64,000 nucleotides of DNA from Gordius albopunctatus (Eukaryota): positions 1,426,001 through 1,490,000 of the forward strand of contig OZ193910.1 in NCBI GenBank assembly GCA_964276515.1, given 5' to 3'. This document shows, in pieces, positions 33,361 through 64,000 of this stretch. Each line of letters opens with the position of its first letter. Position 1 is the stretch's first letter. The position numbers and the translations under genes are program-made. A model generated the notes under the pieces. The model saw only the letters and a program-made list of their open reading frames with translations, was not told where the DNA came from and made no database searches.

Positions 33361-35638
33361 GTCAGGAATGGCATCCTCTGACACCACCCGCAAGGCTTCA
33401 GTTGATTGAAAACTCAGCAGTTTGCACGTCTCTTTTGGGCCCCAGTCGCTTAAATTGGTTGGCATATGACGTGCGCTTAAAATTGCAGAAGAAAGAAAGA
33501 ACTCAATCGAATCTCCAGATTTATAGAATTTATTTCCTTTAGGTTCAAATCGTAGTCCAACCACGCCAAACGTTGAAGGAATAAATGGGAAGAAGGAATA
33601 TATTCACGAATAAGAGATAACCATCACGGACAACAATTTATTACCAAGGATAGATCACAAGTGGCGAAATAGCGATAAAACAATGGAAACATAAAAATAA
33701 TATATCTTCACGAGGAATAACAAAGTATAAAATAATATACAAAGGTAATCTCACAATTTTATACGCAATATTTATATTAACCAATATCATTTATTTTTAT
33801 CTAAAGTAAAATGCATGTAATATATCATCACATAGAAAAGATAATAAAAAAGCCAGGCACTATCTTGACGGGCCTTAATTTAACTTAATATGATAGATAC
33901 CTTTTAAGTAACCTATGGAAAAAATAGAAATGAGTGAAATTAATTCTTCTTGTCAATTTTAAGATAATTATAACCAACTACGGTGATAAACTTCTCTGAA
34001 TTACATTTATAAAGCAATATAAGGACGGCCAAACTATTCTTATAAACCTGCAACCGTCAATATTATTATAAATACCTTAGATATTTTCAGCATTCACTTG
34101 TCGCCCTAACCCGAGATTCGTAAAGTAAAATATTAATTTTTCTTACAAGCCATATATTAGTTAGAATAAAAATTACAATTAGTTTATGTTTACCTAACGC
34201 AACTAGCCTATACCATTCATTAGATCAAGGGCTTGACTTAAATACGCTCCTGCTCATCCCGATATAACGGAGCTCAACTACGCTTATGCGATATATAATC
34301 TAAAGTTAGATTAACGAATTCGTCAAATCCTATTATGAAATTATACTATTTTTAAATATGAAATAACTGCTAAAGAATTAAAATTATCATTCTGCTTCCT
34401 TTATATTTACAGTATGGATTTTGAGATGAACAAATTTATTCTTGATAGCATATTAGGTATTATCTTAATTTATTTAATGAATTTCTTATGACTCTTATGT
34501 AAGTGTCTTTGCCAAAAATGATATAAGTTTATCACGTGCAATAATTTTAATTTTATAATAGATCTTGATGAAACTCTCTTGCTAGAATATTGGGTATCAT
34601 TATAATTTTAATAAATTTCTTATAATTCTTTTGTAAGTGTCTTCTTTGCAAAAATAATGATATATGTTTAACGGTGCAATAGTTTTATAATTGGCCTTGG
34701 TGAAACTCCTTTTATAATAATTAATCCCTCAATGAATACTTAGCGTGTAGTGTTTTTAGTCTGCGTAGTTAGAGCATACTTCCCTTCAAGTACAATATGT
34801 ATAGTTTTTTAGGTCCTGGAGCAACTCATTTTCTACACCTAATCATAACACAACCATCAAAGCATAAAACATTATAATAGCTCACAGTCTTGAAAAATAT
34901 AATTCCTGAAGAAAAATATATATTAAAGGAAAACTAACCACTTAATTTATCCACCTCTTTATTTCGCTTATCCTACAAAGAAGTCATTTTCATAATAATT
35001 GAAGTATAAACGAAAATTTTGAGACAAGATATAGGGTTGAAAGGTAATTTATTATTTGCGCTTTGTCCCTTAATAATTTGAAATTAAAGCAAAGTACCAC
35101 TTTAGAAAATATTTTACATTTATATTTTTAATGTTTTTAATTAAAAACATGAAATACATAATAATATAATAAAAGAACAATGTGACTTTACAACATTTAA
35201 TAACTCACCTTAATAATATTTTAAACAATTTATAAGAATCTTGTGTGTAATAAGGCCAATGATTATATTTGGGAAAAGCTAGACTCCCGTAGACATAAGC
35301 GTATCCAGGATTGCCTCAAGGCAGGGGTTTACACTAATTAAGGGGGGTGGGGTTAATTTTGTGTCAAAAAGTTTTTGATTAAACAAAAACTAATTAAAAT
35401 TAGATAAATTCAATATCTACGATGGGTATTAGGTTAAAAACCCATTAATAATAGGTTCAGAGACACAAATTGCTAAGAGTTCCTTCCAATTTTTCTGTTT
35501 GCGTTTTTGGGGCAATGTTTGAATTAAACACTTGCATGGGTCTTTTTTGCCCACCAGTACGAAAAATTGTCCCGCCTCGGGACTGTTAAAGTGAAATTAT
35601 AAGCTCGTCATTTTTTGCAAAGCACCGGTGTAGCCTAC

Positions 35639-38600
35639 TGTAACGAAGTGGCCGGCTGGTAGAACCCTAAGCTCCCGTATACTAGGCTCCCGTATAACAC
35701 TAACTCCGATTCTAAACCAAGAGACTAAGTCAAAAGATAGAGACTGTTTTATTAGGTGGATAAGGCTTTATATACACATAGCGAAAGACATATATAAAAG
35801 TAGTAATCAATTAAGAGATAATGTACGGTGTAAACTAAGGTATATTCAAATGGCTAAGCGTATATTCAATTATCTGTGACCGCGCTCAAGTATAGGAAAA
35901 ACGCGTGTATTCAAATTGCAACCTTAAATGCGGCTACACTACACTTCTCCTTCCTTTAAGCGGAACCTTGAGGATATCTGACAGTTGGCACCGATACTCT
36001 TTTATAGGAAAGTATGAAATCGCTTTGACCAACAAGCGCGAGCCAGGTGGTTTGGTTTACCACACCTATAACATATTATTTTCTTGTTGTTCCTAAAGGT
36101 GCTAAGATTAAGAACATTTCTTAAAAAAAATATTATAATTATTAGTCAAATTCCTAGTTGGATATTTTTTATCCAGATGTAATGTCCAAATCGTTAAACT
36201 ATCAATATCCTTTGGATAAATTTGACTTTTTAATTCACTCAGGTGGGTCGTGACTATATAAGCTAGCAACACCAATTTTCTCAAATCTCCGTCAATTTTT
36301 CTAAGACGAAAGATTAATTCCAATTGATATAAATAATCATCAATATTTTTAGTTGAATCATATGGTGTAATATCTCTAACCCAACCAAGAGAATTCCCGG
36401 AATCTGATTCGAATTTTGAACCAAACCAAGAGAATTTCCGGAATCTGATTCCAATTTTGAATTCACATCGGACTTCTTCTTGGTCATTTTGATTAACAAA
36501 GGCTAGCGGCACTCATTATGGAGTATCCCATCCTCGTCGCCAAATGTAACGAAGTGGCCGGCTGGTAGAACCCTAAGCTCCCGTATACTAGGCTCCCGTA
36601 TAACACTAACTCCGATTCTAAACCAAGAGACTAAGTCAAAAGACAGAGACTGTTTTATTAGGTGGATAAGGCTTTATATACACATAGCGAAAGACATATA
36701 TAAAAGTAGTAATCAATTAAGAGATAATGTACGGTGTAAACTAAGGTATATTCAAATGGCTAAGCGTATATTCAATTATCTGTGACCGCGCTCAAGTATA
36801 GGAAAAACGCGTGTATTCAAATTGCAACCTTAAATGCGGCTACACTACACTTCTCCTTCCTTTAAGCGGAACCTTGAGGATATCTGACAGTTGGCACCGA
36901 TACTCTTTTATGGGAAAGTATGAAATCGCTTTAACAAGCGCGAGCCAGGTGGTTTGGTTTACCACACCTATAACATATTATTTTCTTGTTGTTCCTAAAG
37001 GTGCTAAGATTAAGAACATTTCTTAAAAAAAATATTATAATTATTAGTCAAATTCCTAGTTGGATATTTTTTATCCAGATGTAATGTCCAAATCGTTAAA
37101 CTATCAATATCCTTTGGATAAATTTGACTTTTTAATTCACTCAGGTGGGTCGTGCCTATATAAGCTAGCAACACCAATTTTCTCAAATCTCCGTCAATTT
37201 TTCTAAGACGAAAGATTAATTCCAATTGATATAAATAATCATCAATATTTTTAGTTGAATCATATGGTGTAATATCTCTAACCCAACCAAGAGAATTCCC
37301 GGAATCTGATTCGAATTTTGAACCAAACCAAGAGAATTTCCGGAATCTGATTCCAATTTTGAATTCACATCGGACTTCTTCTTGGTCATTTTGATTAACA
37401 AAGGCTAGCGGCACTCATTATGGAGTATCCCATCCTCGTCGCCAAATGTAACGAAGTTGCCGATCACATCCTCGTCGCCAAATGTAACGAAGTGGCCGAC
37501 TGGTAGAACCCTAAGCTCCCGTATACTAAGCTCCCGTATAACACTAACTCCGATTCTAAACCAAGAGACTAAGTCAAAAGACAGAGACTGTTTTATTAGG
37601 TGGATAAGGCTTTATATACACATAGCGAAAGACATATATAAAAGTAGTAATCAATTAAGAGATAATGTACGGTGTAAACTAAGGTATATTCAAATGGCTA
37701 AGCGTATATTCAATTATCTGTGACCGCGCTCAAGTATAGGAAAAACGCGTGTATTCAAATTGCAACCTTAAATGCGGCTACACTACACTTCTCCTTCCTT
37801 TAAGCGGAACCTTGAGGATATCTGACAGTTGGCACCGATACTCTTTTATAGGAAAGTATGAAATCGCTTTGACCAACAAGCGCGAGCCAGGTGGTTTGGT
37901 TTACCACACCTATAACATATTATTTTCTTGTTGTTCCTAAAGGTGCTAATATTAAAAACATTTCTTAAAAAAAATATTATAATTATTAGTCAAATTCCTA
38001 GTTGGATATTTTTTATCCAGATGTAATGTCCAAATCGTTAAACTATCAATATCCTTTGGATAAATTTGACTTTTTAATTCACTCAGGTGGGTCGTGCCTA
38101 TATAAGCTAGCAACACCAATTTTCTCAAATCTCCGTCAATTTTTCTAAGACGAAAGATTAATTCCAATTGATATAAATAATCATCAATATTTTTAGTTGA
38201 ATCATATGGTGTAATATCTCTAACCCAACCAAGAGAATTCCCGGAATCTGATTCGAATTTTGAACCAAACCAAGAGAATTTCCGGAATCTGATTCCAATT
38301 TTGAATTCACATCGGACTTCTTCTTGGTCATTTTGATTAACAAAGGCTAGCGGCACTCATTATGGAGTATCCCATCCTCGTCGCCAAATGTAACGAAGTT
38401 GCCGATCACATCCTCGTCGCCAAATGTAACGAAGTGGCCGACTGGTAGAACCCTAAGCTCCCGTATACTAAGCTCCCGTATAACACTAACTCCGATTCTA
38501 AACCAAGAGACTAAGTCAAAAGACAGAGACTGTTTTATTAGGTGGATAAGGCTTTATATACACATAGCGAAAGACATATATAAAAGTAGTAATCAATTAA

Positions 38601-41600
38601 GAGATAATGTACGGTGTAAACTAAGGTATATTCAAATGGCTAAGCGTATATTCAATTATCTGTGACCGCGCTCAAGTATAGGAAAAACGCGTGTATTCAA
38701 ATTGCAACCTTAAATGCGGCTACACTACACTTCTCCTTCCTTTAAGCGGAACCTTGAGGATATCTGACAGTTGGCACCGATACTCTTTTATAGGAAAGTA
38801 TGAAATCGCTTTGACCAACAAGCGCGAGCCAGGTGGTTTGGTTTACCACACCTATAACATATTATTTTCTTGTTGTTCCTAAAGGTGCTAAGATTAAAAA
38901 CATTTCTTAAAAAAAATATTATAATTATTAGTCAAATTCCTAGTTGGATATTTTTTATCCAGATGTAATGTCCAAATCGTTAAACTATCAATATCCTTTG
39001 GATAAATTTGACTTTTTAATTCACTCAGGTGGGTCGTGCCTATATAAGCTAGCAACACCAATTTTCTCAAATCTCCGTCAATTTTTCTAAGACGAAAGAT
39101 TAATTCCAATTGATATAAATAATCATCAATATTTTTAGTTGAATCATATGGTGTAATATCTCTAACCCAACCAAGAGAATTCCCGGAATCTGATTCGAAT
39201 TTTGAACCAAACCAAGAGAATTTCCGGAATCTGATTCCAATTTTGAATTCACATCGGACTTCTTCTTGGTCATTTTGATTAACAAAGGCTAGCGGCACTC
39301 ATTATGGAGTATCCCATCCTCGTCGCCAAATGTAACGAAGTTGCCGATCACATCCTCGTCGCCAAATGTAACGAAGTGGCCGACTGGTAGAACCCTAAGC
39401 TCCCGTATACTAAGCTCCCGTATAACACTAACTCCGATTCTAAACCAAGAGACTAAGTCAAAAGACAGAGACTGTTTTATTAGGTGGATAAGGCTTTATA
39501 TACACATAGCGAAAGACATATATAAAAGTAGTAATCAATTAAGAGATAATGTACGGTGTAAACTAAGGTATATTCAAATGGCTAAGCGTATATTCAATTA
39601 TCTGTGACCGCGCTCAAGTATAGGAAAAACGCGTGTATTCAAATTGCAACCTTAAATGCGGCTACACTACACTTCTCCTTCCTTTAAGCGGAACCTTGAG
39701 GATATCTGACAGTTGGCACCGATACTCTTTTATAGGAAAGTATGAAATCGCTTTGACCAACAAGCGCGAGCCAGGTGGTTTGGTTTACCACACCTATAAC
39801 ATATTATTTTCTTGTTGTTCCTAAAGGTGCTAATATTAAAAACATTTCTTAAAAAAAATATTATAATTATTAGTCAAATTCCTAGTTGGATATTTTTTAT
39901 CCAGATGTAATGTCCAAATCGTTAAACTATCAATATCCTTTGGATAAATTTGACTTTTTAATTCACTCAGGTGGGTCGTGCCTATATAAGCTAGCAACAC
40001 CAATTTTCTCAAATCTCCGTCAATTTTTCTAAGACGAAAGATTAATTCCAATTGATATAAATAATCATCAATATTTTTAGTTGAATCATATGGTGTAATA
40101 TCTCTAACCCAACCAAGAGAATTCCCGGAATCTGATTCGAATTTTGAACCAAACCAAGAGAATTTCCGGAATCTGATTCCAATTTTGAATTCACATCGGA
40201 CTTCTTCTTGGTCATTTTGATTAACAAAGGCTAGCGGCACTCATTATGGAGTATCCCATCCTCGTCGCCAAATGTAACGAAGTTGCCGATCACATCCTCG
40301 TCGCCAAATGTAACGAAGTGGCCGACTGGTAGAACCCTAAGCTCCCGTATACTAAGCTCCCGTATAACACTAACTCCGATTCTAAACCAAGAGACTAAGT
40401 CAAAAGACAGAGACTGTTTTATTAGGTGGATAAGGCTTTATATACACATAGCGAAAGACATATATAAAAGTAGTAATCAATTAAGAGATAATGTACGGTG
40501 TAAACTAAGGTATATTCAAATGGCTAAGCGTATATTCAATTATCTGTGACCGCGCTCAAGTATAGGAAAAACGCGTGTATTCAAATTGCAACCTTAAATG
40601 CGGCTACACTACACTTCTCCTTCCTTTAAGCGGAACCTTGAGGATATCTGACAGTTGGCACCGATACTCTTTTATAGGAAAGTATGAAATCGCTTTGACC
40701 AACAAGCGCGAGCCAGGTGGTTTGGTTTACCACACCTATAACATATTATTTTCTTGTTGTTCCTAAAGGTGCTAAGATTAAAAACATTTCTTAAAAAAAA
40801 TATTATAATTATTAGTCAAATTCCTAGTTGGATATTTTTTATCCAGATGTAATGTCCAAATCGTTAAACTATCAATATCCTTTGGATAAATTTGACTTTT
40901 TAATTCACTCAGGTGGGTCGTGCCTATATAAGCTAGCAACACCAATTTTCTCAAATCTCCGTCAATTTTTCTAAGACGAAAGATTAATTCCAATTGATAT
41001 AAATAATCATCAATATTTTTAGTTGAATCATATGGTGTAATATCTCTAACCCAACCAAGAGAATTCCCGGAATCTGATTCGAATTTTGAACCAAACCAAG
41101 AGAATTTCCGGAATCTGATTCCAATTTTGAATTCACATCGGACTTCTTCTTGGTCATTTTGATTAACAAAGGCTAGCGGCACTCATTATGGAGTATCCCA
41201 TCCTCGTCGCCAAATGTAACGAAGTTGCCGATCACATCCTCGTCGCCAAATGTAACGAAGTGGCCGACTGGTAGAACCCTAAGCTCCCGTATACTAAGCT
41301 CCCGTATAACACTAACTCCGATTCTAAACCAAGAGACTAAGTCAAAAGACAGAGACTGTTTTATTAGGTGGATAAGGCTTTATATACACATAGCGAAAGA
41401 CATATATAAAAGTAGTAATCAATTAAGAGATAATGTACGGTGTAAACTAAGGTATATTCAAATGGCTAAGCGTATATTCAATTATCTGTGACCGCGCTCA
41501 AGTATAGGAAAAACGCGTGTATTCAAATTGCAACCTTAAATGCGGCTACACTACACTTCTCCTTCCTTTAAGCGGAACCTTGAGGATATCTGACAGTTGG

Positions 41601-44301
41601 CACCGATACTCTTTTATAGGAAAGTATGAAATCGCTTTGACCAACAAGCGCGAGCCAGGTGGTTTGGTTTACCACACCTATAACATATTATTTTCTTGTT
41701 GTTCCTAAAGGTGCTAAGATTAAAAACATTTCTTAAAAAAAATATTATAATTATTAGTCAAATTCCTAGTTGGATATTTTTTATCCAGATGTAATGTCCA
41801 AATCGTTAAACTATCAATATCCTTTGGATAAATTTGACTTTTTAATTCACTCAGGTGGGTCGTGCCTATATAAGCTAGCAACACCAATTTTCTCAAATCT
41901 CCGTCAATTTTTCTAAGACGAAAGATTAATTCCAATTGATATAAATAATCATCAATATTTTTAGTTGAATCATATGGTGTAATATCTCTAACCCAACCAA
42001 GAGAATTCCCGGAATCTGATTCGAATTTTGAACCAAACCAAGAGAATTTCCGGAATCTGATTCCAATTTTGAATTCACATCGGACTTCTTCTTGGTCATT
42101 TTGATTAACAAAGGCTAGCGGCACTCATTATGGAGTATCCCATCCTCGTCGCCAAATGTAACGAAGTTGCCGATCACATCCTCGTCGCCAAATGTAACGA
42201 AGTGGCCGACTGGTAGAACCCTAAGCTCCCGTATACTAAGCTCCCGTATAACACTAACTCCGATTCTAAACCAAGAGACTAAGTCAAAAGACAGAGACTG
42301 TTTTATTAGGTGGATAAGGCTTTATATACACATAGCGAAAGACATATATAAAAGTAGTAATCAATTAAGAGATAATGTACGGTGTAAACTAAGGTATATT
42401 CAAATGGCTAAGCGTATATTCAATTATCTGTGACCGCGCTCAAGTATAGGAAAAACGCGTGTATTCAAATTGCAACCTTAAATGCGGCTACACTACACTT
42501 CTCCTTCCTTTAAGCGGAACCTTGAGGATATCTGACAGTTGGCACCGATACTCTTTTATAGGAAAGTATGAAATCGCTTTGACCAACAAGCGCGAGCCAG
42601 GTGGTTTGGTTTACCACACCTATAACATATTATTTTCTTGTTGTTCCTAAAGGTGCTAAGATTAAAAACATTTCTTAAAAAAAATATTATAATTATTAGT
42701 CAAATTCCTAGTTGGATATTTTTTATCCAGATGTAATGTCCAAATCGTTAAACTATCAATATCCTTTGGATAAATTTGACTTTTTAATTCACTCAGGTGG
42801 GTCGTGCCTATATAAGCTAGCAACACCAATTTTCTCAAATCTCCGTCAATTTTTCTAAGACGAAAGATTAATTCCAATTGATATAAATAATCATCAATAT
42901 TTTTAGTTGAATCATATGGTGTAATATCTCTAACCCAACCAAGAGAATTCCCGGAATCTGATTCGAATTTTGAACCAAACCAAGAGAATTTCCGGAATCT
43001 GATTCCAATTTTGAATTCACATCGGACTTCTTCTTGGTCATTTTGATTAACAAAGGCTAGCGGCACTCATTATGGAGTATCCCATCCTCGTCGCCAAATG
43101 TAACGAAGTTGCCGATCACATCCTCGTCGCCAAATGTAACGAAGTGGCCGACTGGTAGAACCCTAAGCTCCCGTATACTAAGCTCCCGTATAACACTAAC
43201 TCCGATTCTAAACCAAGAGACTAAGTCAAAAGACAGAGACTGTTTTATTAGGTGGATAAGGCTTTATATACACATAGCGAAAGACATATATAAAAGTAGT
43301 AATCAATTAAGAGATAATGTACGGTGTAAACTAAGGTATATTCAAATGGCTAAGCGTATATTCAATTATCTGTGACCGCGCTCAAGTATAGGAAAAACGC
43401 GTGTATTCAAATTGCAACCTTAAATGCGGCTACACTACACTTCTCCTTCCTTTAAGCGGAACCTTGAGGATATCTGACAGTTGGCACCGATACTCTTTTA
43501 TAGGAAAGTATGAAATCGCTTTGACCAACAAGCGCGAGCCAGGTGGTTTGGTTTACCACACCTATAACATATTATTTTCTTGTTGTTCCTAAAGGTGCTA
43601 ATATTAAAAACATTTCTTAAAAAAAATATTATAATTATTAGACAAATTCCTAGTTGGATATTTTTTATCCAGATGTAATGTCCAAATCGTTAAACTATCA
43701 ATATCCTTTGGATAAATTTGACTTTTTAATTCACTCAGGTGGGTCGTGCCTATATAAGCTAGCAACACCAATTTTCTCAAATCTCCGTCAATTTTTCTAA
43801 GACGAAAGATTAATTCCAATTGATATAAATAATCATCAATATTTTTAGTTGAATCATATGGTGTAATATCTCTAACCCAACCAAGAGAATTCCCGGAATC
43901 TGATTCGAATTTTGAACCAAACCAAGAGAATTTCCGGAATCTGATTCCAATTTTGAATTCACATCGGACTTCTTCTTGGTCATTTTGATTAACAAAGGCT
44001 AGCGGCACTCATTATGGAGTATCCCATCCTCGTCGCCAAATGTAACGAAGTTGCCGATCACATCCTCGTCGCCAAATGTAACGAAGTGGCCGACTGGTAG
44101 AACCCTAAGCTCCCGTATACTAAGCTCCCGTATAACACTAACTCCGATTCTAAACCAAGAGACTAAGTCAAAAGACAGAGACTGTTTTATTAGGTGGATA
44201 AGGCTTTATATACACATAGCGAAAGACATGAAAGTAGTAATCAATTACGAGATAATGTACGCTGTAAACTAAGGTATATTCAAATGGCTAAGTGTATATT
44301 C
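35639..44301 (-). repeat. Tandem array of a non-autonomous mini LTR retroelement: 10 LTRs (last truncated) alternating with 9 internal segments; unit 906, 938, then 942 bp
   Basis: 305-bp LTR TGTAAC...CTACA (first copy 35639-35943). PPT AAAGGAAGGAGAAG on -. PBS TGGCGACGAGGATGGGAT matches the tRNA-Ser(GCU) 3' end as I recall it. The internal segment carries a gag N-terminal fragment (IDDYLYQLELIF...VLLAYIG) similar to the gag at 50396-50832. ORF periodicity is 942 bp. Confidence 0.95.
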
Positions 44302-46455
44302 TTATAGGCGCCTTTTTGAACTTTTTTTGTCAATGCTTAAACAATCATTTATTTATATAGTGAAAATGTTCAATATTAATCATTATAAATATATTAGTCT
44401 TTTAATAGTTACTTCTGAATTATCAGCTGTTCGGCAGTCTATGGTATTATTAGTCTATGGTTATGATCCTCTTTATTTAAAAAAACTTTTCAAATCCTAT
44501 CATTTATAAATGACAAGATCTATAAATGAATATTTATGCGTTCATTAAACATTGATTTATTTTAATATCCCACCTCTTTAAGACAGTATATAAACAAGCA
44601 CTAACGCTTAAAAAATCATTTATAATTATTTATTACGATACTCTTCTTTACTCTCATCTCTATAAATTCTTATATAGATAACCTTATATCAATTAGGTAG
44701 TAAGTTTGTTCCATGTAGTGTATGTAATATTCAATAACTAAACACATTAAAAAGTATAAGTCTTTTTTTAATATTCATATCTTTTTTATATATTCGCAAT
44801 AATACATATATTATATATATGAATATGAAAACTCATTACAATTGGTAATTTTTTATTAATAACAAATCTTATATAAAATTTAATTCATTCGCTAGCTAAT
44901 CTATATCATATTATATTGCCAATTTAAAATGTATATATACATACATTTAGTACATATATAGATATATTTAATATCTATATGTTTTATAATATAATATTAT
45001 ATATATTGAAATAACATTAGCACATTTAGTTATTAAATTAAGGCCAATTATTATATCATTTAAATAATTTCACCTATAACTTATTATTATAATTAAGAAA
45101 TATTTTAAAATATCTATTTCTTATAACCTTACTATATAATGCATTACTTTATTCAATTATATTTTTTTTTAAATATTTAAGATATATGTCTTATTTGTGT
45201 CGTAAGTGAGCTGCGTTATATTTCAGTTGAACTGGATCCTCGGACCACTTCTGTTCAAAATCTAATATATGCAAAAACGAATATTGGCAAAATCTAATAT
45301 AAGCAAAACCAAATATGTGCGAAATCCCCGAAATAAATTTTAACGTATTCTCCCGCATTTTATACAAATCCCAGCTGAAATGTTTTCCACTCTTCCGTCT
45401 GAAATTTTTACATTTACGAATTTTTATAATGCAAAGATATAGCGTACCCAATGCAAGCACTAATGCTGTAAAGTATTCCCAGGGCCTCAATATTAGGTCA
45501 GAAAGTAATAGATAACATGATTTTTTATATGTTTGGAAATTTTTACAATCTTTATATTATGTTGCTTAGGCCTCCCACGTATAATACTACCCAATGCAAG
45601 CACTAATCCTGCAAGATATTCCCAGGGCCTCACTATTAGGCCAGAAAGTAATAGATAACATGATTTTTTGTATGTTTGGAAATTTTTTGTTTTAAATTTT
45701 TACAATCTTAATTTTAAAATTTTTCAGGCCAGCTGGACTCTTCTCTACGGGATGCCTTGCTCCTGTTCGATGCCACAAACCAAATGCGTGAAGATGGTGA
45801 AGGTAAATAATTTTTAAAGCCTATATAATATTTCATTTCATAGTGGCATCGCCAGAGTATATCCGTTCTCAAAAGGGAGGCCCGATTTTGTATTATTTTT
45901 CATATCTATATATGAAGAGGAGTATAACCAAAGGCAAGACCTGTTATGGATGCCGCAGCTCCACCTGTCCTGCTATCGCCACTAAATTTAATGGGCAAGT
46001 CGTTGCCAAACGGCAGCACAATCATGAACCTCCTAGGGAAGAGTATGAAGCCCTGGTGACCAAGTCGAGACTTAAAGAAGCTGTTGTTGCTAACCCTACT
46101 GTGAAAATTAGTAGGATTTATCATCAGACTCTAAGTTCTCGACTTCGTGAGGTTCGTGACTTGTCTGACTTCCCATTGGCTACTCCCCCTTTGAAGGCGG
46201 TACGATACACGATGAAGAGGGCTCGGCCTAACAGGCAACCCATTCCCTCTGATAGAAGCCGGATCCGTTTGACGGAGGCCCAAACCGTGGCTCCTAATAA
46301 CGAGCCGTTCCTATTATGGAATGACAATAACGACCTTCGCTCCTCAAGGTTTTGTGCCAGGTACCTTCCATTTATATGGATGGTACCTTTAAAGTCTGTC
46401 CTACACACTTTTATCAAGTATATATATCGAATGCCTAATTAATGTATATAATATA

Positions 46456-47768
46456 TAGAGATGCACCGATACCAAGTATCGGCATGGTATCGGCGCCGAT
46501 ACTTTGCCAAAAGTATTTGCCGATACATTGCTAGTATCGGCAATTACCAAGCCGATACCTTTTTCAATATGAAACTCAAAAAATAATATTTATAGTATCT
46601 CCTACCATTAAAAAATAGAGGACTTTTTAAATTTTTTTAAAATTGTTTCATTTGATTGGCTATAAATATTTCTATGTTGAGTATAATAAACTCATTCACC
46701 ATCTGTTCCGAATAACTCCGCTTTTAAGTAAATATTATTTTAAAAATTATTATATATTAAGCCTTAAATGGGTTCTTTAGATACACTATGGAGTTATTTT
46801 GTTGTGTCAGCAGATGAAAATATTGTAATCTGTGAATTATGCAAAGCTAAAATAAGTCGTGGGGGCAAAGACAAAGATTCCGTTAATACTTCAAATTTAA
46901 GGAAACATTTAAAAACTAGACATCCAATCGAATTTCGCAGTGTTCTTAAAAATTAAAGTGATATTAATACAAAAAAGATTAATTTGAATAAACAAAAACC
47001 AGCTTCTGGTATTCAATCTACATTAAAGGAAGTGATTGAGCTTAATAAAATGTGGGATAGTACACATAATAAAGCAGAGAGTATTACTCAATTAATTGCT
47101 GAAATGATTGCATTGGACTCACAAGTCACAACCCTTTTCAATTGTAGAAGATATTGGATTTAATAGATTAATAAAAAAATGTGTCCTAAATATTTCATTC
47201 CAAGTCGACGGTATTTTTCTGAAATTAGCCAGAAGATATCTAGGCCCACCACCAACAACAGTACCATCAGAATCATTATTCAGTATGATGAGTGGTGAGA
47301 TAGATTCTAATAGGAGAAGAAGGCTTCTTTCGGAGAAAATAGAACAATAAACAATTGTTGTTAAGTTGAACATAAGAGAACTAAATTTTCAATATTAGTT
47401 TTTAATTTAAGCATATTACACGTATATTTACTTTTTTATAAAATAAATTTATGTATTAATAAAATATAAAGTGTACCATAATAAAATTTAAATTTCTTTT
47501 TTGATCTATTAATTACAATACTTTTGAATTAATTAATAACAAAATTTATTATTATAAATTAATATTATATTACAATTGTTTTATCGTCAAAATTCTGATC
47601 TACCAAAATTTGGATGTGACTTAATTTATAATATTTAATTTGCATATATTTTTTAGTATAAAAATTTTTTTATTATAAGTATCGGCATGGTATCGGTATC
47701 GGCAAAAAAATCTTAAGTATCGGCTGGTATTGGTATCGGCACAAAATAGTGGTATCGGTGCATCTCTA
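46456..47768 (+). mobile_element. Internally deleted hAT (BED-finger) transposon inserted in a MULE intron
   Basis: TIR TAGAGATGCACCGATACC / GGTATCGGTGCATCTCTA. BED finger LWSYF...CELC...TSNLRKHLKTRH (46768-46956) and dimerisation motif LARRYLGPPPTTVPSESLFS. AATATA on both flanks. Confidence 0.9.
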
Positions 47769-47995
47769 AATATAGCTTCATACAATTCATGGCTTTTACA
47801 AGGATCATATGATTCCTGCCGTGTATGTGTTTATGCCGGATCGGAAGCGAGAGACGTATTGCAGAGTGTTTGAAAAATTGAAGGATTAATGTTTGGAATT
47901 CAATTTGCAATTCAATCCATCATTTATCCAGATTGATTTTGAACGCTCTGCAAATAGTGCTCTTCGGATCTGCTTTCCAAACGCCGTTATAAAAG

Positions 47996-48473
47996 TGTGG
48001 TAATTCGATTGATTTATCGCTTGATTTATTCGATTACTTGAACCGAAGCTATTATGATTGAGGATTGTTGTTGTTGGTGTTGATGTTGTTGTGTATGACT
48101 GAGGAGATGCACCGTGGTATAAAAGAACAGAAAGCAATATATACACTCATTCACTTACTCACTTACACTCTCTTCCCCACTCATTCACAAATTCACTAAT
48201 TCATTATTCACTACCATTTTGTACAATCGCTCACTTACTTACTTTTCACCTATGTTAACGTTGCCAATTCGCAGTTAATACGCCTATAACATTAGTCATT
48301 TAATTGTAATTATACCGTGTAAATTATATCTTGTTCGATTATCCTTGGAAATTATGTAAGTATTGATCCTGTAACATCTTTAAATAAAGTAGATATATTT
48401 ATTAGCTTAAAACAGTTTATATTAGTAGTAGATAATAAAGAGTTGGAATAGATTATAACAGGAGGTTATAACA
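47996..48473. mobile_element. Solo LTR (478 bp)
   Basis: TG...CA termini and 5-bp TSD AAAAG (47991-47995, 48474-48478); removing it restores the MULE exon/intron junction IKG|GT. Confidence 0.85.
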
Positions 48474-49884
48474 AAAAGGTAATATTAAACATGTCATGTT
48501 TAAATCGTATATTCAAGGTTGTCTATTCCATTTCTCCAGAGCCTTGTTAAGACGGGTTGACAAGCTGGAGTTTAAAAAAGCATATAATAATAATATTTTG
48601 ATAAGGAAATTGGTAAGAAGAATCGCAGCCTTTCCATTTTTAAGATATGAAGATGTCTTTTACGTTTATGAAGCATTTCGGAATGATCTTTTTGTCTCCC
48701 AACATGCGAAATTACGATCGTTTTTTAATTACGTTTATAAATCTTGGGTGAACCCCTCTGCGACATTTTCCTATGAAATGTGGCAGAGGTATGAGGCTGT
48801 TGGTCCTAGGACCAACAACCACCTTGAGGGGTATCATAAAGGTTTAAAGTCCCTTATTGGGAGCCGCACCCCGATATATACTTGTATTTCATTTTTAATG
48901 CAAAATAATGAAAAAACTCTGATCAATCTTCTACAAATTGATCAGGGTAATACACTATATTCGATTAATAAATGCGTTCGCGAAAAAAATGCACATATAC
49001 AAACATTACTCGCTTTATATTCTGATACTTCGCGGTATTATGATGTTTTTGATTACGTTGACAATATCGCGAAATTATTATCTTTTAATTATGATTCGCG
49101 GTATTGGAATTTTTTTAATATGGATATATCGCGCGCGTTTTTCAATAATGACACTGATAATGTCGACGGTTATAATAGGGACACTAGTGACTATACAGAC
49201 ACTAGTGACTCAGAATAAAATTTAATAATACTTATGTGTTCGTGATTGCTTCAGCCTTTTTGTAACCTTTTATTAAATACGATATTTCATGGAATTTGAA
49301 TATTCAATTTTACCTTAGGTGAAATAATTGCAGATTATTTATCTATTCAAAACAGTAAAAAAAGTTAGTTACCTTAATAAATTTACTGATGATTTTATCT
49401 ATTACGGTGACATTAAATACTCTATTGTACTTTCAAAATCATTGCTCAAAAATCTCGAGCCCTCTTAGCTTAACTTGTATAATTATTCAAACTGATTGAC
49501 CACCATCTTAAAATTACCGCATCACAGGATGAGTAACTGCGAAATTCAAATATGCTTTGGTAATATTTACTATTCCATCAGAACTCATTCTAAATCTAAA
49601 ATATTGTAATATTTAACAATGTTATGGATAATATGCAATAAATATATAAAATTATTCACATACCCTAAGAGGCAACCATACTTAGGTAAATGATTGCCAA
49701 ATTTTTAAATTTTTTGCAAAAATATATAACATTTACTACATTTATGTATTTTATAATACCAAATATATTTCATACATATTAATTAACACTTAATACCTCA
49801 AAAGTAAATCATGCAAATGATAAAATACTCAATAATTCATTAAAATCTAACGATCAATAAAAGTCGAGATCTCGCCGAAAATAT

Positions 49885-50232: not shown

Positions 50233-50395
50233 TGTGGTGTCTTTGCACCCGCTTAATTATTTTTATTTATCTATGTTTGCACCTGTTTAATTATTTTTCC
50301 AGTAATATGCGTAAATTGTAATAAATCATTTTAATTTTGTTATTACCATTTTATCTTATCGATTTTGTTACCCTGCGTTACGGATTATTACGTTA

Positions 50396-53300
50396 CTGAA
50401 TTTAATCCAGAAATTCATTCAATTGAAGATTATCTGTACAATTTAGATGCCATCCTAGACATAAAAGGAATTAAATCTAGTCCAATAGTTAAAAAGAAGA
50501 TAGTTTTGGCATACATAGGATTGCCAATAATCAAGGAACTGAGGGAAATTTTATATCCCATGACTTTAAATGATGCAAAATGGGAAAATTTTGAAAAGGC
50601 CTTATATCAAAGATATCAACCAATGAAAACTATTTTTGCTCATAGGTTAGATTTGATGAACTTAAGCAGATTGCCTGGTGAAAGTATTTTAGAATTGTCC
50701 AAAAGAATTAGAATATGCTTAAGTAAATGTGCATACAAGCATGACTTTGATGAAAGAGCCCGAGATCATTTTATCTTTGCCCTTAAATTTAAACAACTAG
50801 AGATGGAACTTAAGACAAAATATCCTGACTGATACTCTAGATGAGGAAGGCAAGCCCCTTACGTTTGAAAGAATAATAAATATGGCTTTATGTATGGGGA
50901 GAGCTGAAGTAGAGACAAATGGTGATTCTGAGGAAAGACTTTTTAAACTAAAATATGACACTAAGAAACAGTTGAATGATCACAACAAGAATGATAACAA
51001 AATATTATTCAAATGTTCAAGGTGTCTAAAACAACATGCAAAATTTCGTTGTCCAGCCTTTACAGCAACATGCTTCAGATGTCAAAAGAAAGGCCATTTC
51101 GCTATAGCTTGTCGTAGTGCATTAAATCAAATGACTCTCGAAAATGATAATGATGATTCTGGTGATTCTATCAAGCGTGTATGTCAATTATCTAAACGAG
51201 CCACAATAGAGGTTAAATCAAATGGTCAAAATTTCATAATGGAATATGACACGGGGGCTCAGATTAGTCTTATCAACCTTAAAATGTGGAAACAAATAGG
51301 CAGACCCGGATTGACCAAATGTATGTCTCCCAAAGCTTATGGTAACCAGTCAGTAGAAACGTTGGGCAAAACATTATTAAATGTCCAGATGGGGAAAATT
51401 AATCATAATTTGACAGCTGTGGTTACAAAGACAGATGATGTCCTCTTGTTTGGATTACCATGGATTATAAAATTCGGATTAAATATTCCAAAAGAAGTAA
51501 AAATTCAGAAAGTTAAATATGATAATAATTCATTAATATCTTTTGACAAAGAATTTCTGTTATTATTTGATAAAAGTCCAGCATCAGTTAAGAATATATC
51601 GGTTAAAATTCAATTAAGAGATGATGCTAGACCCATTGCCTTACCGGCTAGAAGGGTCCCGTTTCCACTAAGAAAACCAATTGAATTTGAAATAAATAGG
51701 TTACTACAAATGGGTGTAATTGAAAAAGTGGATCCATGTGAAACACATGTTATATGGAGTACCCCAACCGTCAATGTCCGCAAAAGTAATGGAGATATCA
51801 GGATATGTGCAGATTTCAAAGTTACCTTAAACAAATTCATTCTTAATGATTTTCAAATAATTCCAACTTTTGAGGAGATCATGGAAAAGATTGAAGGAGG
51901 TTCAATATACACAAAAATCGATATGTGAGATGCTTATTTACAGCTCCCTGTGCACATTGATTCCCAAAAATTACTAGTCATTGCGACACATGTGGGGCTA
52001 TTTAAATATAAAACAATGCCATTTGGGTTGTCATGCGCCCCACTAATTTTTCAAAGCTTTATGGAAGAAGTTCTAAAAGACTGTGAAAACACTGGGGTTT
52101 ACATGGATGACATCATAATAAGTGGAAAAGGCTATGACGACCATGTTAAAAATGTGAGAAAAGTTCTAAACAAACTGCAATCTGCAGGGATGAAAGCTCG
52201 TCTTTCTAAAGTTGAGTTTTGTAAAACCACTATATCGTTTTTGGGGCACATAATTGATAAAAATGGAATTCGTCCATCGGGAGATAAAGTCCTTGCAATC
52301 AAAATGTGTCCAACACCTCGAAACATCCATGAACTGAGATGTTTTTTAGGACTTGTGAACTACCATGAAAAATTTATTCCCCACTTACATAGCATCTTAG
52401 CGCCATTACATCAATTGACTGGTACGAGAACCAAGTGGGATTGGACAGTAGAGACACAAAAACTTTTGAGAAAGTAAAATGATTGCTCTCCGATCAATCG
52501 ACATTAATTCCGTATTCAAAATCTCTTCCAATAATTTTAGAATGTGATGCGTCTGAAAATGGTTTTGGAGCTGTTTTATATCACACAGTGAACTCGGGTA
52601 AAAGGCCAATAGCATACGCTTCAAGAACTTTAATTGATGGTGAAAAGCATTATGCCCCAATTGATAGAGAAGCAAGAGCCCTACTGTATGGTGTTGAAAA
52701 GTTCCATATGTATTTGTATGGGAGAAAATTTGTGTTAAGAACTGACCATAAGCCACTTGAAAGATTGTTTGGCGAGTCAAGAGACTTGCCAAAAATAAGC
52801 AATAATCGACTTATTAGATGGGCCTGGAAGATGTCGGCATATGATTACACCATTGAGTATATTCCGGGTAAAGAAAACAAAATTGCTGATGCACTTTCAC
52901 GACTACCAGTTACTGCCAATGAGTTAGAAATCAAAGAGTGTAGAAGTTATTCCATTAGTCATATTCGTATACTGAATCTCAATGACATGCAATTAGACAG
53001 GGACATTTTAATGAAAGAATCTCAAAAAGACAAAGTTTTAAAGAAAGTAAAAACATTTGTAAATAAAGGTTGGCCGTTGAACAAAAATATGATACCTATA
53101 GAACTAAGTTTTTATTATAAAAAAAGAAATGAGATAGAAGAAGATAAAGGCATCATTTACGCCAACGGATTACTTGTCATTCCAACTTATTTTTAAAACT
53201 CATCCACAAGGGCCACCCAGGAATTAGTTCAATGAAATCGATTGCACGACTTTATGTTACCTGGCCTCAGTTAGATAAGGATATTGAAACCTACGTACAG

Positions 53301-54403
53301 AAGTGCATCGGATGTCAAAAATATAGATGCAACAAGCCCGAAGTTCCACTGTATTCGTGGAATGTAACAGAACAGCCTTGGGAACGTATACATATAGACT
53401 ACGCGGGTCCCATAAATGGATATTTTTGGTGCATAGCTGTTGATTCATATTCAAAATGGGTCGAAGTGCAGCTACAAAATAGCTCCACCACTACAACGAC
53501 CATTAAAACCATGCGCAAATGGTTTGCAAGATGGGGAGTTCGAAAACAGATCGTTACAGACAACAGTCCTCAGTTTCGAAATTATGAAATGGAACAATTT
53601 TGCAAATCTTTAAATATAAAACACATCAGATCTACGCCATATCATCCAAAAACAAATGGATTGGTGGAAAGAGCTATTAGAACTATAAAGAGCAGATATA
53701 AAGCATGCAGGGAATATACCAAAGATCCCGAGTCATGTATGCTTGACGTGTTGATGGGGTATAGAATCAGTGAACACTCATCAACTGGGAGAACACCGTC
53801 GAAAGTGATGATGGGGAGAAACCTAAAAACTTCACTCGATTGGATACAACCAACAGTCGGCAATTACATAGAACAAAAGACAGAGAAAAGTGAAAACAGG
53901 CAAAGGGACAAAGCTGCTACCAGAGAGTTTATTCCAGGTCAGGCTGTATGGGTAAAAAATGAGATCAAAAAAGGATGGCGGCTGGGGAAAGTCCTTAAGC
54001 GAAATGGACCTTATTCCTACGTGGTCGATACGATGAATAGAACCGTGAAAAAGCATAGTGACCAGCTAAGGAAACGATACCAGCCAACCAAGAAGGTTAG
54101 AGAAGAGAGCGATGACAAAATAAATTGCGATGACGAAGGCGTTGAAGATATCGTTACAGAAAGCACCGGGCCTAGAAGGTCAAATCGAGAAATACATCCT
54201 CCTAAGCGGCCTATTCAAGAAATTTAGTTCTAACTTAAATTAGCGAAGGGAAATGTAATAAATGATTATACAATGTTATTACCGAAACATATTTATATAA
54301 AACAACATGTCATTAACACGTGACAATGTAATGAATTGCGCATTATTATGATCTTATGTTATATTTGAATAAACTATAAATTGGAACTTCAAACTTTGTT
54401 TTA
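50396..54403 (+). mobile_element. Degenerate, 5'-truncated Ty3/Gypsy retrotransposon (element B) with conventional gag-pol
   Basis: gag (to 50832, then 50882 onward with two CCHC knuckles), YDTGA protease, ICADFK and YMDD RT, CDAS and TDHKPL RNase H, integrase 53232-54227. In-frame stop at 51926-51928 and several frameshifts. PPT at 54243-54253, then 3' LTR from TG at 54254. No 5' LTR seen. Confidence 0.92.
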
Positions 54404-54530
54404 ATCATTATTGAATTCTTTTCGTATCGATAATTATAGTCTAATTTAACGCGAAAAAACATTGGCCTCCCTTTTTTGGGGAGGACCTAACAGCAAGAGT
54501 TCTAAATAAATAAAATTTTAAAATTGGAGA

Positions 54531-55412
54531 CGTTTGCCAGTTGGTATTGAATTTTTTAATCGTAATTTACGTTTTCCGCCTGATTTTTTGCTAGATAGCA
54601 AATTTAAACATCAATCAGGCAAGACTAAATATAATATTAACGATTTTGTGTGGTCGAAAAATTATTTAGGTCAACCTAGATGGGAACTATCTAAAGTTGT
54701 TGATCACGTAGGTAATAAAATTTAGCCTAATGTTTATTTTTTTGCATTGTAGATGGACGTCATTACTTCATGGTGTATTGTCCGAATTGTCGTAGAGAGA
54801 TTGGCCGGAGTGCGTCCTCCGTGCCCTCTCCATATTTCATTTGTTATCGGGATGGACGTCATCCCAAGAATAACGTTTTTTGCAGAGCTTCCTGTGAATG
54901 GGGGTCAGGGGATGCCCCAGGGTGCTAATGGTCGTGTGTATCGGCAGGCACCTATGCGTCTTAACAGAGGAAGTGGTGGTCGACGGCACCCACGAGGTGT
55001 TAATCGTTTGCGGTGTGAAATATGTCAGCGATGGCATCGTTTACCGATGTGTCCGTCGTCGATTGTTAACAATAATTTAAATACCTTGCCTGTTGGAGGG
55101 CAAGTAATCATGCCTGTTGGAGGGCAGGTGGTTACACCCCAGGTACAAACCAGTGGGTTGGCAACAACTATCATTGGTAGTGCTTTGGTCACCCCGTTAG
55201 CTGCTATGACTTTGGCAGGTGATCTGCAAAGGCAGTGATCAGCTATTAAAAAGGGGAGGTGTGGCATATGTCGATATTAAATTATATGCCGAATTAAGTT
55301 ATTTTTATCTTGGTTAAACGTTATAAGCCCTCTGACAAAATAAAATTAAATGCTAGTAATAAAATCCTCCACTAAAATTATAATGTGTTATGGAAATCCG
55401 TTTTTTTTATAA
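54531..55412 (+). mobile_element. 3' remnant of a second ORF3-bearing Gypsy (element C): integrase tail, ORF3, PPT, LTR
   Basis: 54534-54725 (FFNRNLR...DFVWSKNYLGQPRW...VGNK) aligns with the element A tail (FLNRIPR...EAVWARGYGGSEKW...VGSK). PPT AAAAAGGGGAGG at 55248-55259, then TGTGG at 55260. Right boundary approximate. Confidence 0.8.
54753..55238 (+). CDS. Element C ORF3 (161 aa), homolog of element A ORF3
   Basis: MDVITSWCIVRIVV...LHISFVIGMDVIP vs MDIIASWCRVQVVV...LHVSFVVGADGVP; CEICQRWHRLPMC vs CHGCHRRHRGLRC. Confidence 0.8.
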   Translation: MDVITSWCIVRIVVERLAGVRPPCPLHISFVIGMDVIPRITFFAELPVNGGQGMPQGANGRVYRQAPMRLNRGSGGRRHPRGVNRLRCEICQRWHRLPMCPSSIVNNNLNTLPVGGQVIMPVGGQVVTPQVQTSGLATTIIGSALVTPLAAMTLAGDLQRQ

Positions 55413-56476
55413 CTCTCCAATTTTAGAATTTTATTTATTAAGAACTCTTGCTGTTAGTTCCTCCCCAAAAAAAGGGAGGCCAATGTTTTTCGCGTTAAAT
55501 TAGACTATAATTATCGATACGAAAAGAATTCAATAATGATAAACCATAACGTAATAATCCGTAACGCAGGGTAACAAAATCGATAATGATAATGGTAACA
55601 TAATCGATAAGATAAAATGGTAATAACAAAATTAGAATGATTCATTACAATTTACGCATATTAATGGAAAAATAATTAAACAGATGCCAACATAGATAAG
55701 TAAAAATAATTAAGCGGGTGCAAAGACACCACATGTGTATATCTCGTAATGAAGCTTCTAATGACATCCACGCACCATTAATCAATCTTCTGGTATGAGC
55801 GATATCAAGATACAGAAAGATTTTGGAAGAGACCCAATATGTTATATATGTTAACCTGATGTCATAAATACGCAAGATATTATGGAATAAATATGTATAT
55901 CATCATGAATCGCTAGATGGACAAAATAATAACAAACTTTTCGATGATTTGAATATATAAAAAACATCATAGCTTATGCATTTCATATATATTTTAAATA
56001 TGCTATTAAAAATATATATAAACACGCATGCTTAGTTAAAATACGTGCTTTAATGTATTTTATTTATCATATAACTATTACCTATGTAGTTTGGTTATAT
56101 GAAAGCCATAACTTAGTTTATTATATAATTGTATACAAAATAGTAACTAAATACATTTTAATCCAATTCTACACTTAGTGATTGATTTGTTAATATGTAT
56201 TTATTTATAAAATATTATTATACATTTTGATATAACTTAATTTGTTTTAATTAACAATTATAGCATCCTTTTATTAAGTAGTTTAATTACATATTATAAT
56301 TTCACCATTTTATAAATTTTAGTTTTATTGTCTACTTTGGGATGCTTATTAGATAATGCCTATCTTAGATTTTGCACCAGATTCCCTCGGACGCCTATAC
56401 CCGAACCTATTTAATCGCTTTTACAAATTTTAAACCACAGAAAATCAAAGATTCAAAAATTATATTTTTATTTATA

Positions 56477-57808
56477 ATGATGGAATATGATGTTTTAATA
56501 GGAACCTTAGGAAGTAGCATAGACGAAAATTGTTGGAGCGATCCATCGACTAATAAAATCGGTGGTTTTCCAGTATTATTATATTCTTTTTTTGACTTTA
56601 AAAATAAAGATTTTAGGATTGGCTAAATGGCAATTATAAAGTTGCCTGCACAAATTGTGGCCGTGTTCTAACCTTAGTTTGCCAATTGAGTTGCCCAATT
56701 GATAAAAAATTTAAAAGAACCTTATATCTGCTTACTTGTATCAACATAAAATGTGCAAAGAAAAATGAGTGGGTTATACTGCGTGGCATGTGCTTAAAAA
56801 ATAATTTTATTGAAGAAAAAAAGCTCTCAATAGATGAATTAGATGATGATTGGGGAATGTCAAACATTGAAGAATTCCATGAACCTTTACCAAATTATGA
56901 ATCTGTTTTAAACACTCTATCATTTGATACAAATTTACACTTAGAAAACAAAGAAGAGATTGAAGAACAATTGTGGAATAACATGATGAAAAAGCATAAT
57001 TTAAATAATAGTTTAACAAAAAACAATATATTTCTACCTCATAATGCAAAAATAGCTTTTAAATCATATTATATTGAAAGTAGTTTTGAGGAAGAGTACC
57101 AATGTATTACATCAGATAAAATACACTATAATGAAGATGCCATCATAAGGTATTTTATATTTGCTAACCTTATTTTTATGGCTCCCACATATATCTAAAA
57201 ACAAAATTAATTTTTGTTGCCTATATCTTGTCTAGCTTGTCTATGCCTTCGACACTCCCAGAAAATTATGAAAAATGTGTGCCACCTCACAAAGATATCC
57301 AATTTCATAAATTTTACGAAAGAATTCAAATTTGTCCACAGCAATGTCTTAGGTATTATAATCTTAAAATTTTATAGTAATTAGTTTATTGAGTTGTTCA
57401 TGGTCTAATAATTTTTTTAATTCTATTAAGATATTATCGTGGAGGTAAACCATTAATTGTCCAAGATATTACTTTTTCAATTCCATCCTGTGATTGTGGT
57501 TCCCCAAGAATATTTGAATGTCAATTGATGCCTCAAATCTTAACATATCTTCTACTAGATGGTCCTAGTTCAGGTTTCCTATAAACAAACATTTAGATAG
57601 CCTAAAATAATATTTTTTAGAAAAAATGTTATATTATTTAACATAGCAGATAAAATTGTGCACTTTTTCTATTATTTTAAAATATTTTTTAGCTTTGCAC
57701 CCACTAGACTTTTTTTCTATCCTCATTTACACATGCTCCTCAAATTGTTGGGATAACGATAGAGACACCTACAAAGCAGAATATGCCATTGTTTTACCTA
57801 GCGTGTAA
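56477..57808 (+). CDS. PDCD2L: Programmed cell death protein 2-like (PDCD2L/TSR4 family, ribosomal protein uS5 chaperone), about 334 aa, 5 exons
   Basis: Exons 56477-56572, 56617-57149, 57236-57352, 57431-57573, 57693-57808, all GT-AG and in phase (1005 nt). Motifs NKIGGFPDW, CTNCG...LVCQLSCP...RTLYLLTC; PDCD2_C motifs RIQICPQQCLRYYRGGKPL, CDCGSPRIFECQLMP, ILIYTCSSNCW. Confidence 0.88.
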
Positions 57809-58017
57809 AATAATTCTATAACCACTAGTCAACTTCAAACCTTTGCAATTGTCAATTTCATCATCATTCTTTTAGACTCTTTTTAAATGTTATATATGCA
57901 AATTATACCTTATAATAATCAATATGCTATTTTTATCATTGAAAATATACCATATATGGTAGAAAATGGAGTTTATGTTTTAAACTCCATTCCTCAAATA
58001 ACGATTTGGATACATCC

Positions 58018-63030: not shown

Positions 63031-64000
63031 GGTTACCTATTCAAAAGATTTAACCTTTATTATTCAAGTATTCATGCACCCTAATCGTAAAAGTAAAAAC
63101 GTCCAAGTATTTGAAGGTCTCGCGATTCACCGTTATTATTCACACAAATAACCTCGACAGATGTGTATATAAACGCGATGTTTTAACTAAAAATATTCTT
63201 TCATTCAATCCTTTCTATTATTCGGAAATAAAATAGTTGTTTGCTCTCATACAATCCTTTGTTTAATAAATATTTTATTTATTACTATTTATAGGGACTT
63301 GAGCAGCAACAAAATGGTGACCCCGGCGCCGAAAATGGAAATGAAACAAGAGGATGAAGATTCGACTGGGGAAAATACGATATACTTCAAACTCCCCATT
63401 TTTAACGCCTTAAATCCAAGAATTTGGTTTATCCAAATCGAATCTCTTTTAAAAATACGTAAAATTAAAAATGAATTCACTAAATTATGGTATCTCATTG
63501 AAAACCTGCCACAAGAGGTGACCTCTGAAATACAAGATCTTTTAGAAAACATCCCAAACGAAGCTCCGTTTACTACCCTCAAAGAAGCTATAATTACACG
63601 TACATCCAGGAGTGATATGCTGCGTCTTCATGATCTAATTACTAACGTAAAATTGGGTGACCGAACCCCTTCTCAACTATTGCGTTATATGAGAACCTTA
63701 TTAGGTAAACATTCAATGGACGATACTATACTCAAACAGCTCTGGATGGACAAACTACCAGGTACAATGACAGGAATACTATCGAATTTTCCCCAAGACC
63801 AATCTCCCACAAAATTGGCAGAAACTGCAGATAAGATAGCGGCTACCTATCACGTAAGCCCGATAATTAATTCTCTAAACCCAGGTCTAAATAAAGAGAT
63901 GGAAGAACTTAAAGAGCTCGTAAAAAAACTTAATGTCACAGTAGAAACACTAAAAAGGGATGTACAAAAAGTACGATCACGATCATTTTCAAGACATATA
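63031..64000 (+). mobile_element. gag: 5' end of another Gypsy element: LTR (ends ...CAACA at 63311, start approximate), tRNA-Trp-type PBS, and gag running off the window
   Basis: TGGTGACCCCG at 63315. Open frame from ATG 63314/63335: KLPIFNALNPRIWFIQIE...LGDRTPSQLLRYMR...LWMDKLP, a typical Gypsy gag N-terminus. Confidence 0.85.

Follow-up and report, generated by a model that had tools for sequence, protein, structure and literature searches.

Background

In the bdelloid rotifer elements Juno and Vesta, ORF3 follows pol and is typically a separate, spliced unit, and the rotifer ORF3s found in this position also include env-like ones, as far as the accessible portion of PMC5408684 describes them. 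CERV of the Caenorhabditis elegans element Cer1 is presented, in the excerpts of PMC10309623 that are available, as the product of a spliced mRNA, with a Cys-rich loop and an essential Arg, that is needed for export of the genomic RNA. The env genes of errantiviruses and Tor elements are expressed subgenomically, by splicing or from an internal promoter, according to the available parts of PMC4402516 and PMC13524379. In the MDG1 group, sORF2 of env-less elements is outlined in the accessible part of a preprint (10.1101/2025.03.14.642691) as a protein of 63-107 aa with Gly2 myristoylation and one TM segment, located downstream of pol in seven of 22 lepidopteran cases.

The locus described here lies in a window of 64,000 nt from Gordius albopunctatus (assembly GCA_964276515.1, contig OZ193910.1, positions 1,426,001 to 1,490,000, forward strand), which has 35% GC and contains, besides host genes with short introns, several transposon relics. 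Two Ty3/Gypsy elements in this window, A and C, carry a small ORF, ORF3, that encodes a zinc knuckle protein. Like the ORF3s of Juno and Vesta, it is found in invertebrate Ty3/Gypsy elements as an additional ORF behind pol (PMC5408684, in the text available), and, as do the env genes of errantiviruses and Tor elements, it lies between pol and the 3' LTR (PMC4402516, PMC13524379, likewise in part).

Organization of elements A and C

Element C is a 5'-truncated Gypsy fragment, with gag and most of pol absent from the window. All that remains of its pol is the C-terminal tail of the integrase (54531-54725, forward strand; stop codon TAG at 54723-54725), which is followed on the same strand by a predicted splice acceptor region (54727-54752), ORF3-C (54753-55238; 161 aa, ATG at 54753, stop codon at 55236-55238), a PPT read from the sequence (55248-55259, AAAAAGGGGAGG) and a 3' LTR that begins with TG at 55260. 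The placement of ORF3-C between integrase tail and PPT, like that of ORF3-A, was already given in the first-pass annotation of this DNA, and the coordinates 54531-55259 hold. The 3' LTR (55260-55930, forward strand, right end approximate, AATAAA at 55886) is split after 55388 and resumes at 55739, the intervening solo LTR, X (55389-55733, reverse strand; 345 bp, TGTGG...CCATA), being inserted in inverted orientation with a TGTGT target duplication; contigs that join 55382 to 55733 bridge the empty site. A second copy of X (50233-54530, forward strand) consists of two pieces (50233-50395 and 54401-54530), is interrupted by a third, unrelated Gypsy element, B, and is cut off against the integrase tail of C. 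A hairpin in X (approximately 54463-54485) was considered as a primer-binding site, with X as the 5' LTR and leader of C, and this was rejected because X has a target duplication and is a solo LTR in its complete form. Approximately 500 bp from the LTR of C is a host gene with short introns, the first of 44 nt (56479-57810, forward strand), which has no Pfam match and is presumed to be PDCD2-like.

Element A (26493-32347, reverse strand) is whole, with identical 279-bp LTRs (TG...TA), a GGAAT target duplication and a PPT. Its leader of 742 nt is AT-rich, with a longest stop-free stretch of 50 codons. ORF1 (30823-31326, reverse strand) encodes 167 aa with a strong TM segment at residues 23-41 and one CX2CX3HX4C knuckle, and terminates at TGA CTAG in frame with pol, which is taken to be a read-through context. 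Protease, RT and RNase H, followed by integrase, are encoded in that order by pol (27982-30822, reverse strand; Pfam), and the integrase tail runs on in another frame to 27726. A predicted acceptor (27677-27698, reverse strand), with CTAAT at -22 as predicted branch point and a TAG/ATG junction, precedes ORF3-A (26930-27676, reverse strand), the homologue of ORF3-C, which has 248 aa in the window copy. An antisense ORF over ORF3-A (27047-27601) was rejected as a gene because C has no matching long ORF. The LTRs of A and X end in TG...TA rather than TG...CA, and each element has a 5-bp target duplication. Contigs in the runs described below join the flanks of A (26487-32353), that is, an empty site is present, and either A is polymorphic at this position or it sits within a repeat.

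Other relics in the window include a tandem array (35630-44370, reverse strand) of nine to ten nearly identical 942-bp units, each with an N-terminal capsid-type gag fragment (profile E approximately 2e-7) and a knuckle fragment, and a weak RT trace is found at 33208-33603; the array looks like a tandemly amplified fragment of an LTR element or an assembly artefact. A FLYWCH zinc finger ORF (45807-46442, forward strand) is followed by a transposase-like ORF (48472-49218) without a Pfam match, and the region 45807-49218 is assumed to be possibly a Mutator-type relic. A DUF7041 ORF (63191-64000, forward strand; E 8e-20) that runs off the window is likely to be the gag of another retroelement.

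Homology and selection in ORF3

Within residues 1-45, ORF3-C and ORF3-A are identical at 20 of 45 positions (44%, E 3e-12). Shuffled controls, a check set beforehand, reached neither the score of the whole-ORF alignment (0/5000) nor that of the N-terminal 50 aa (0/5000). The stretches MD.I.SWC.V..VV and LH.SFV.G.D..P, which had been named as conserved at the outset, are both invariant columns of the alignment. Past residue 45, all similarity taken together was reached in 1/3000 shuffles; the similarity of the linker and knuckle segment is modest (118/5000 shuffles, and 26/3000 in a second test) and the alignment of the tail is non-significant (445/3000). The CX2CX3HX4C knuckle common to both proteins, also part of the first description, starts at residue 88 in ORF3-C and residue 124 in ORF3-A, and protein shuffles produced it in 0/20000 and 1/20000 cases.

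The two ORF3s had been called independent, and this part of the first-pass annotation gives way to common inheritance. The integrase tail of C has 34% identity (E 7e-12) to the integrase tail of A, which is its best match among 155 proteins, and it does not match B; A and C are therefore relatives, and their ORF3s are inherited homologues. The further statement that the two elements differ in DNA, length and LTR agrees with blastn, which matched no DNA of C to A, in the LTRs or elsewhere, but must be amended for length: 248 aa is specific to the window copy and is not a family length for ORF3-A, because this copy has a frame-shifting indel at codon 183 relative to the deepest contig, just past residue 179, where the homology ends. 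A deep contig of run X2 skips 27410-27461, a part of the ORF3-A linker that C lacks, hinting at length variation among ORF3-A subfamilies.

An ORF of at least 161 aa arose in 0/5000 shuffles of the ORF3-C region. In the first 45 codons, a segment picked by protein similarity though anchored at the ATG, pN between A and C is 0.39 and pS is 0.85, which is saturated, and selection is given as pN versus pS instead of a formal dN/dS because dS is saturated; pN was smaller than pS in 2000 of 2000 bootstraps. Identity at codon positions 1, 2 and 3 is 23, 32 and 12 of 45 codons, 15 of the 20 identical residues are encoded by different codons, and the alternative frames over this segment are interrupted by stops. 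With pN of 0.53 in a 32-codon piece of the integrase tail, the N-domain of ORF3 is conserved at least as well as that piece. Because silent sites are saturated while pN is 0.39, the comparison indicates that ORF3 is a genuine gene whose first 45 codons are subject to purifying selection, as first proposed. A chance ORF or neutral relic would accord with the searches described below, in which an ORF3 homologue outside this genome was not found, and is refuted for the first 45 codons by the substitution and codon-position patterns together with the shuffles, leaving it a negligible probability.

Copies and variants

Two public runs, both available as contigs, cover the region and behave as DNA (host introns are unskipped); the depth of their contigs serves only as a coarse guide. 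Depth is 206 for a host gene in run X1 and 3766-4649 over ORF1, pol and ORF3 of A, and a single contig spans ORF1 of A without gaps. Because of this gap-free contig and the similar depth over ORF1, pol and ORF3, the layout of A is likely to be common to many copies; A is a young, multicopy family. For C, summed depths at the listed sites in ORF3 are 1038-1892, and the LTR joint has 3296. These values suggest that A has approximately 20 copies, as an order of magnitude, that C has several, and that ORF3 and pol are equally common. At codons 36, 99 and 120 of ORF3-C (54859, 55047 and 55111), the window differs from every mapped contig, and the three differences are likely to be private to the window copy.

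A third variant, on a contig of single-copy depth, aligns gap-free over 54737-54856 with 16 differences; directly upstream, the 12 letters 54725-54736 are replaced by 81 others, and a 9-mer that the window copies of A and C share ahead of ORF3 is lost at that place. The description of ORF3 as clade-wide is backed by two deeply diverged families and one variant contig in a single genome.

Predicted expression of ORF3

The letters 54727-54752 (CTAATGTTTATTTTTTTGCATTGTAG), directly 5' of the ORF3-C ATG, contain a predicted branch point (CTAAT at -26), a T tract and a TAG that abuts the ATG. An acceptor model ranks the AG before the ATG first of 40 AGs in the C fragment and second of 296 in A, although the model is crude, being built from nine hand-picked host introns of two genes and measuring largely T richness. 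A calponin-homology host gene (15500-17354, reverse strand) that is taken to be a likely alpha-actinin from its translation served as a source of acceptors. CTAAT or CTAAA is found at -24 to -26 in three of the nine host acceptors, to be compared with -26 in C and -22 in A. The spacer between pol and ORF3 varies in length (27 nt in C versus 49 nt in A), and the order of T tract, AG and ATG stays in place. As had been reported, the shared 9-mer precedes each ORF3; these are its two copies in the window. Two copies in 64 kb are at chance level (42/100 shuffles), and a 9-mer common to both spacers was obtained in 360/10000 shuffles and 227/10000 random AT-rich pairs. Both ATGs follow predicted acceptors that are host-like, as the claim of one and the same splice signal would have it, but the 9-mer alone is weak (p 0.02-0.04).

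Read-through from pol into ORF3 was rejected, as in-frame stops precede both ATGs and the spacer of A is out of frame with pol. ORF3 is probably made from a spliced message, to judge from the predicted acceptors; candidate donors in A include one at 31378, within the leader, and one at 31194, within ORF1. Transcription from an internal promoter, in which case the AT-rich spacer would hold no splice site, has a precedent in the env of Tor3b/4b, for which the available text of PMC4402516 gives a promoter in pol or spacer, and the 9-mer does little to argue for splicing; the T tract and YAG at the ATG in both families and the branch-like CTAAT at a host-like distance make this route very unlikely. 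It is similarly improbable that the acceptor joins a donor within ORF1, behind the TM segment, to give a membrane-anchored fusion of TM segment and ORF3 with the Met internal. The candidate donor AGG/GTAAAT at 31194 would suit such a fusion, as it follows codon 44 of ORF1 in phase 0 and lies immediately behind the TM segment. However, it is among 16 sites upstream of the spacer that score 5/7 on a simple donor consensus, two sites score 6, A contains 461 GT sites, phase 0 has a one-in-three chance, and a Met-Asp located exactly at +1 in both families is more simply a start codon. Both of these readings concern expression and can be combined with any of the functional readings below.

Features of the ORF3 protein

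ORF3-C consists of a conserved N-domain of 45 aa, a basic linker, the CX2CX3HX4C knuckle (residues 88-100) and a low-complexity tail. The pI of the linker is approximately 12 in both ORF3-C and ORF3-A, and RxK/RR is found in ORF3 only in the basic linker of A. The N-domain is hydrophobic and probably beta-rich, the latter according to models of low confidence (pLDDT 32 for the whole protein and 56 for the N-domain, with a beta hairpin); fold searches with these models returned nothing at E<=0.001 and an uninformative best Z of 2.9. The best 19-aa hydropathy is 1.68 in ORF3-C and 1.22 in ORF3-A, compared with 2.66 for the TM segment of A ORF1, and NxS/T glycosylation sites are absent from both ORF3s.

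In six frames of the 64 kb, CX2CX3HX4C occurs four times: in the gag of B, ORF1 of A, ORF3-A and ORF3-C. The same spacing is carried by the first knuckle of 16 of 53 related Gags, and ORF3 thus combines the two nucleocapsid features of a knuckle with lineage spacing and basic flanks. A 31-position nucleocapsid profile from 16 related Gags scored neither ORF3 knuckle at E<10, and the knuckle of B itself only at E 1.8. Atlas leads for ORF3 were Gag zinc knuckles with scores of 0.80-0.83, which are under 0.9 and count as leads only, and the N-domain of A gave no usable Atlas match. CCHC knuckles with basic flanks bind RNA. Because ORF3 has such a knuckle, it is likely to bind RNA as well.

Word-based searches, which miss distant relatives, found homologues of ORF3-C at near lengths in 0/43 candidates and of the N-domain alignment in 0/67 at longer lengths, with no candidate at near lengths. 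ORF3 homologues were found in 0/34 stretches of metagenome contigs and in none of ten metagenome loci retrieved with the pol of A, which are distant (26-43%) and of which one (L002) has integrase before RT. A match in one of 42 viral contigs, 25 aa long with neither a start nor an ORF context, was put down to chance. PDB sequences gave no match to ORF3, Pfam only a sub-threshold DUF6431 with no GDSL or DEDDy domain at E<=1, and PHROGs nothing better than E 0.19.

Three known kinds of protein were rejected as identities for ORF3. It is not an Env, since it is small, compared with several hundred residues, and has neither a strong TM segment nor NxS/T sites, which sets it apart from the env products of errantiviruses and Tor elements as far as these are described in the accessible parts of PMC4402516 and PMC13524379. 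It is not an sORF2 or FAST-like fusogen, since it begins with MD, lacks a clear TM segment and has 161 aa. Nor is it a GDSL or DEDDy enzyme, as it has no such Pfam domain and its conserved domain is just 45 aa.

Possible roles in an element with no detectable capsid

A capsid profile made from 16 relatives matches the gag of B with E 2e-20, whereas all frames of A are without a match. Element A thus has no detectable capsid, although a very diverged one could escape the profile. In B, a 5'-truncated, capsid-bearing Gypsy element, the integrase stop is followed by PPT and LTR within approximately 27 nt, with no ORF3; the link between capsid and ORF3 rests on this one capsid-bearing family without ORF3 and one capsid-less family with it. 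Five capsid-type relatives on Logan contigs have little room for ORF3, and were left uncounted because these contigs may be cut.

The preferred reading is that ORF3 is a spliced, RNA-binding second nucleocapsid or scaffold that would compensate for the undetected capsid of A, with a probability of roughly 0.4 on the features described above. LTR transcripts would be spliced, with an upstream donor joined to the acceptor that precedes the ORF3 ATG; ORF3 would thereby be more abundant than the read-through Pol, and would be translated from its own ATG on the subgenomic mRNA. The Arg-rich linker and zinc knuckle would grip the genomic RNA of the element, and the N-domain, if beta-rich as modelled, would self-associate or dock on a partner. 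The membrane-anchored ORF1, the ORF1-Pol read-through product and ORF3 would bring RNA and enzymes together on a membrane, where the ORF3 scaffold would make up for the undetected capsid. The scaffold role is the weakest step of this explanation. Against the explanation as a whole, A may borrow a capsid from a helper such as B, the low-confidence models do not support self-association, the nucleocapsid profile scored neither ORF3 knuckle, and the shared 9-mer is marginally beyond chance and replaced in the variant contig. The stronger statement that the lineage of A and C has lost the capsid and transposes autonomously, with the membrane-anchored ORF1 knuckle protein and spliced ORF3 assembling RNA and enzymes on or in a membrane and no shell, is unlikely.

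The reading ranked next after the scaffold is a Rev-like or CERV-like export factor, which would return to the nucleus, bind unspliced genomic RNA by its Arg stretch and Cys/His finger, and license export or stability. CERV is a precedent within Ty3/Gypsy elements, in Cer1 (PMC10309623, as far as accessible); ORF3 is small, with a basic middle part and a finger; and the 742-nt AT-rich leader and strong internal acceptors of A would suit such a factor. Nevertheless, CERV differs by its description in the available text (517 aa, exons common with gag, a C4-type loop), an NES-like string in ORF3-C (residues 145-154) has no counterpart in A and is of a kind present in 1993 of 2000 shuffles, and the Gag-type spacing of the knuckle would be left unexplained, so that this role is somewhat doubtful.

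In plant viruses, small basic Cys/His proteins encoded at the genome's 3' end serve as anti-silencing factors. An ORF3 of this kind, placed third, would be an anti-silencing or transcriptional factor: by binding to small-RNA duplexes, nascent RNA or LTR DNA, it would protect the element against the defences of the host. A host conflict would agree with the rapid divergence seen everywhere but in one short domain; however, ORF3 had no above-threshold match in Pfam, PHROGs or PDB sequences, and this role is quite unlikely.

Comparison with known systems

The closest pol relatives of A, by the best RT-RNase H and integrase matches, are single-ORF gag-pol Ty3/Gypsy elements with 40-46% identity, presumably of the Mag type. 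In these, a Gag of approximately 300 aa with a capsid is fused to pol, whereas A has a TM-knuckle ORF1, a stop, pol and ORF3. In a tree of 57 sequences, none of them a named reference, with weak support around A, the integrase branch of A is 0.96 long versus 0.45 for B. Knuckle number has been treated as a lineage marker, according to the accessible part of PMC2774666.

Among the accessory proteins, sORF2 resembles ORF3 as a small accessory ORF, with the difference that the TM segment is found here in ORF1 of A and that ORF3 starts with MD (10.1101/2025.03.14.642691, in the part available). The ORF3s of Juno and Vesta are GDSL esterases, DEDDy exonucleases, or TM or coiled-coil proteins in the accessible text of PMC5408684, and ORF3 here is a small knuckle protein. 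CERV, so far as the available excerpts of PMC10309623 describe it, is likewise a Ty3/Gypsy accessory protein with a Cys finger and basic residues, although for ORF3 splicing and action on RNA are only predicted; it comes from an element with a capsid, has exons common with gag and has a C4-type loop, whereas ORF3 forms an ORF of its own behind integrase and its CCHC knuckle is of the Gag type. A literature search that left out most subscription journals and Repbase found no description of a post-integrase knuckle ORF or of a capsid-less TM-Gag element.

Extra ORFs after pol are of a known kind. The known ones, as found, are envelopes, fusogens, captured enzymes and CERV, and ORF3 adds to them a strongly constrained orphan of two families. 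If ORF3 is an export factor, it would be a further and apparently unrelated Rev-like solution in Ty3/Gypsy elements; if it replaces a capsid, it would put to the test whether, as assumed, reverse transcription of LTR retrotransposons has to take place inside one.
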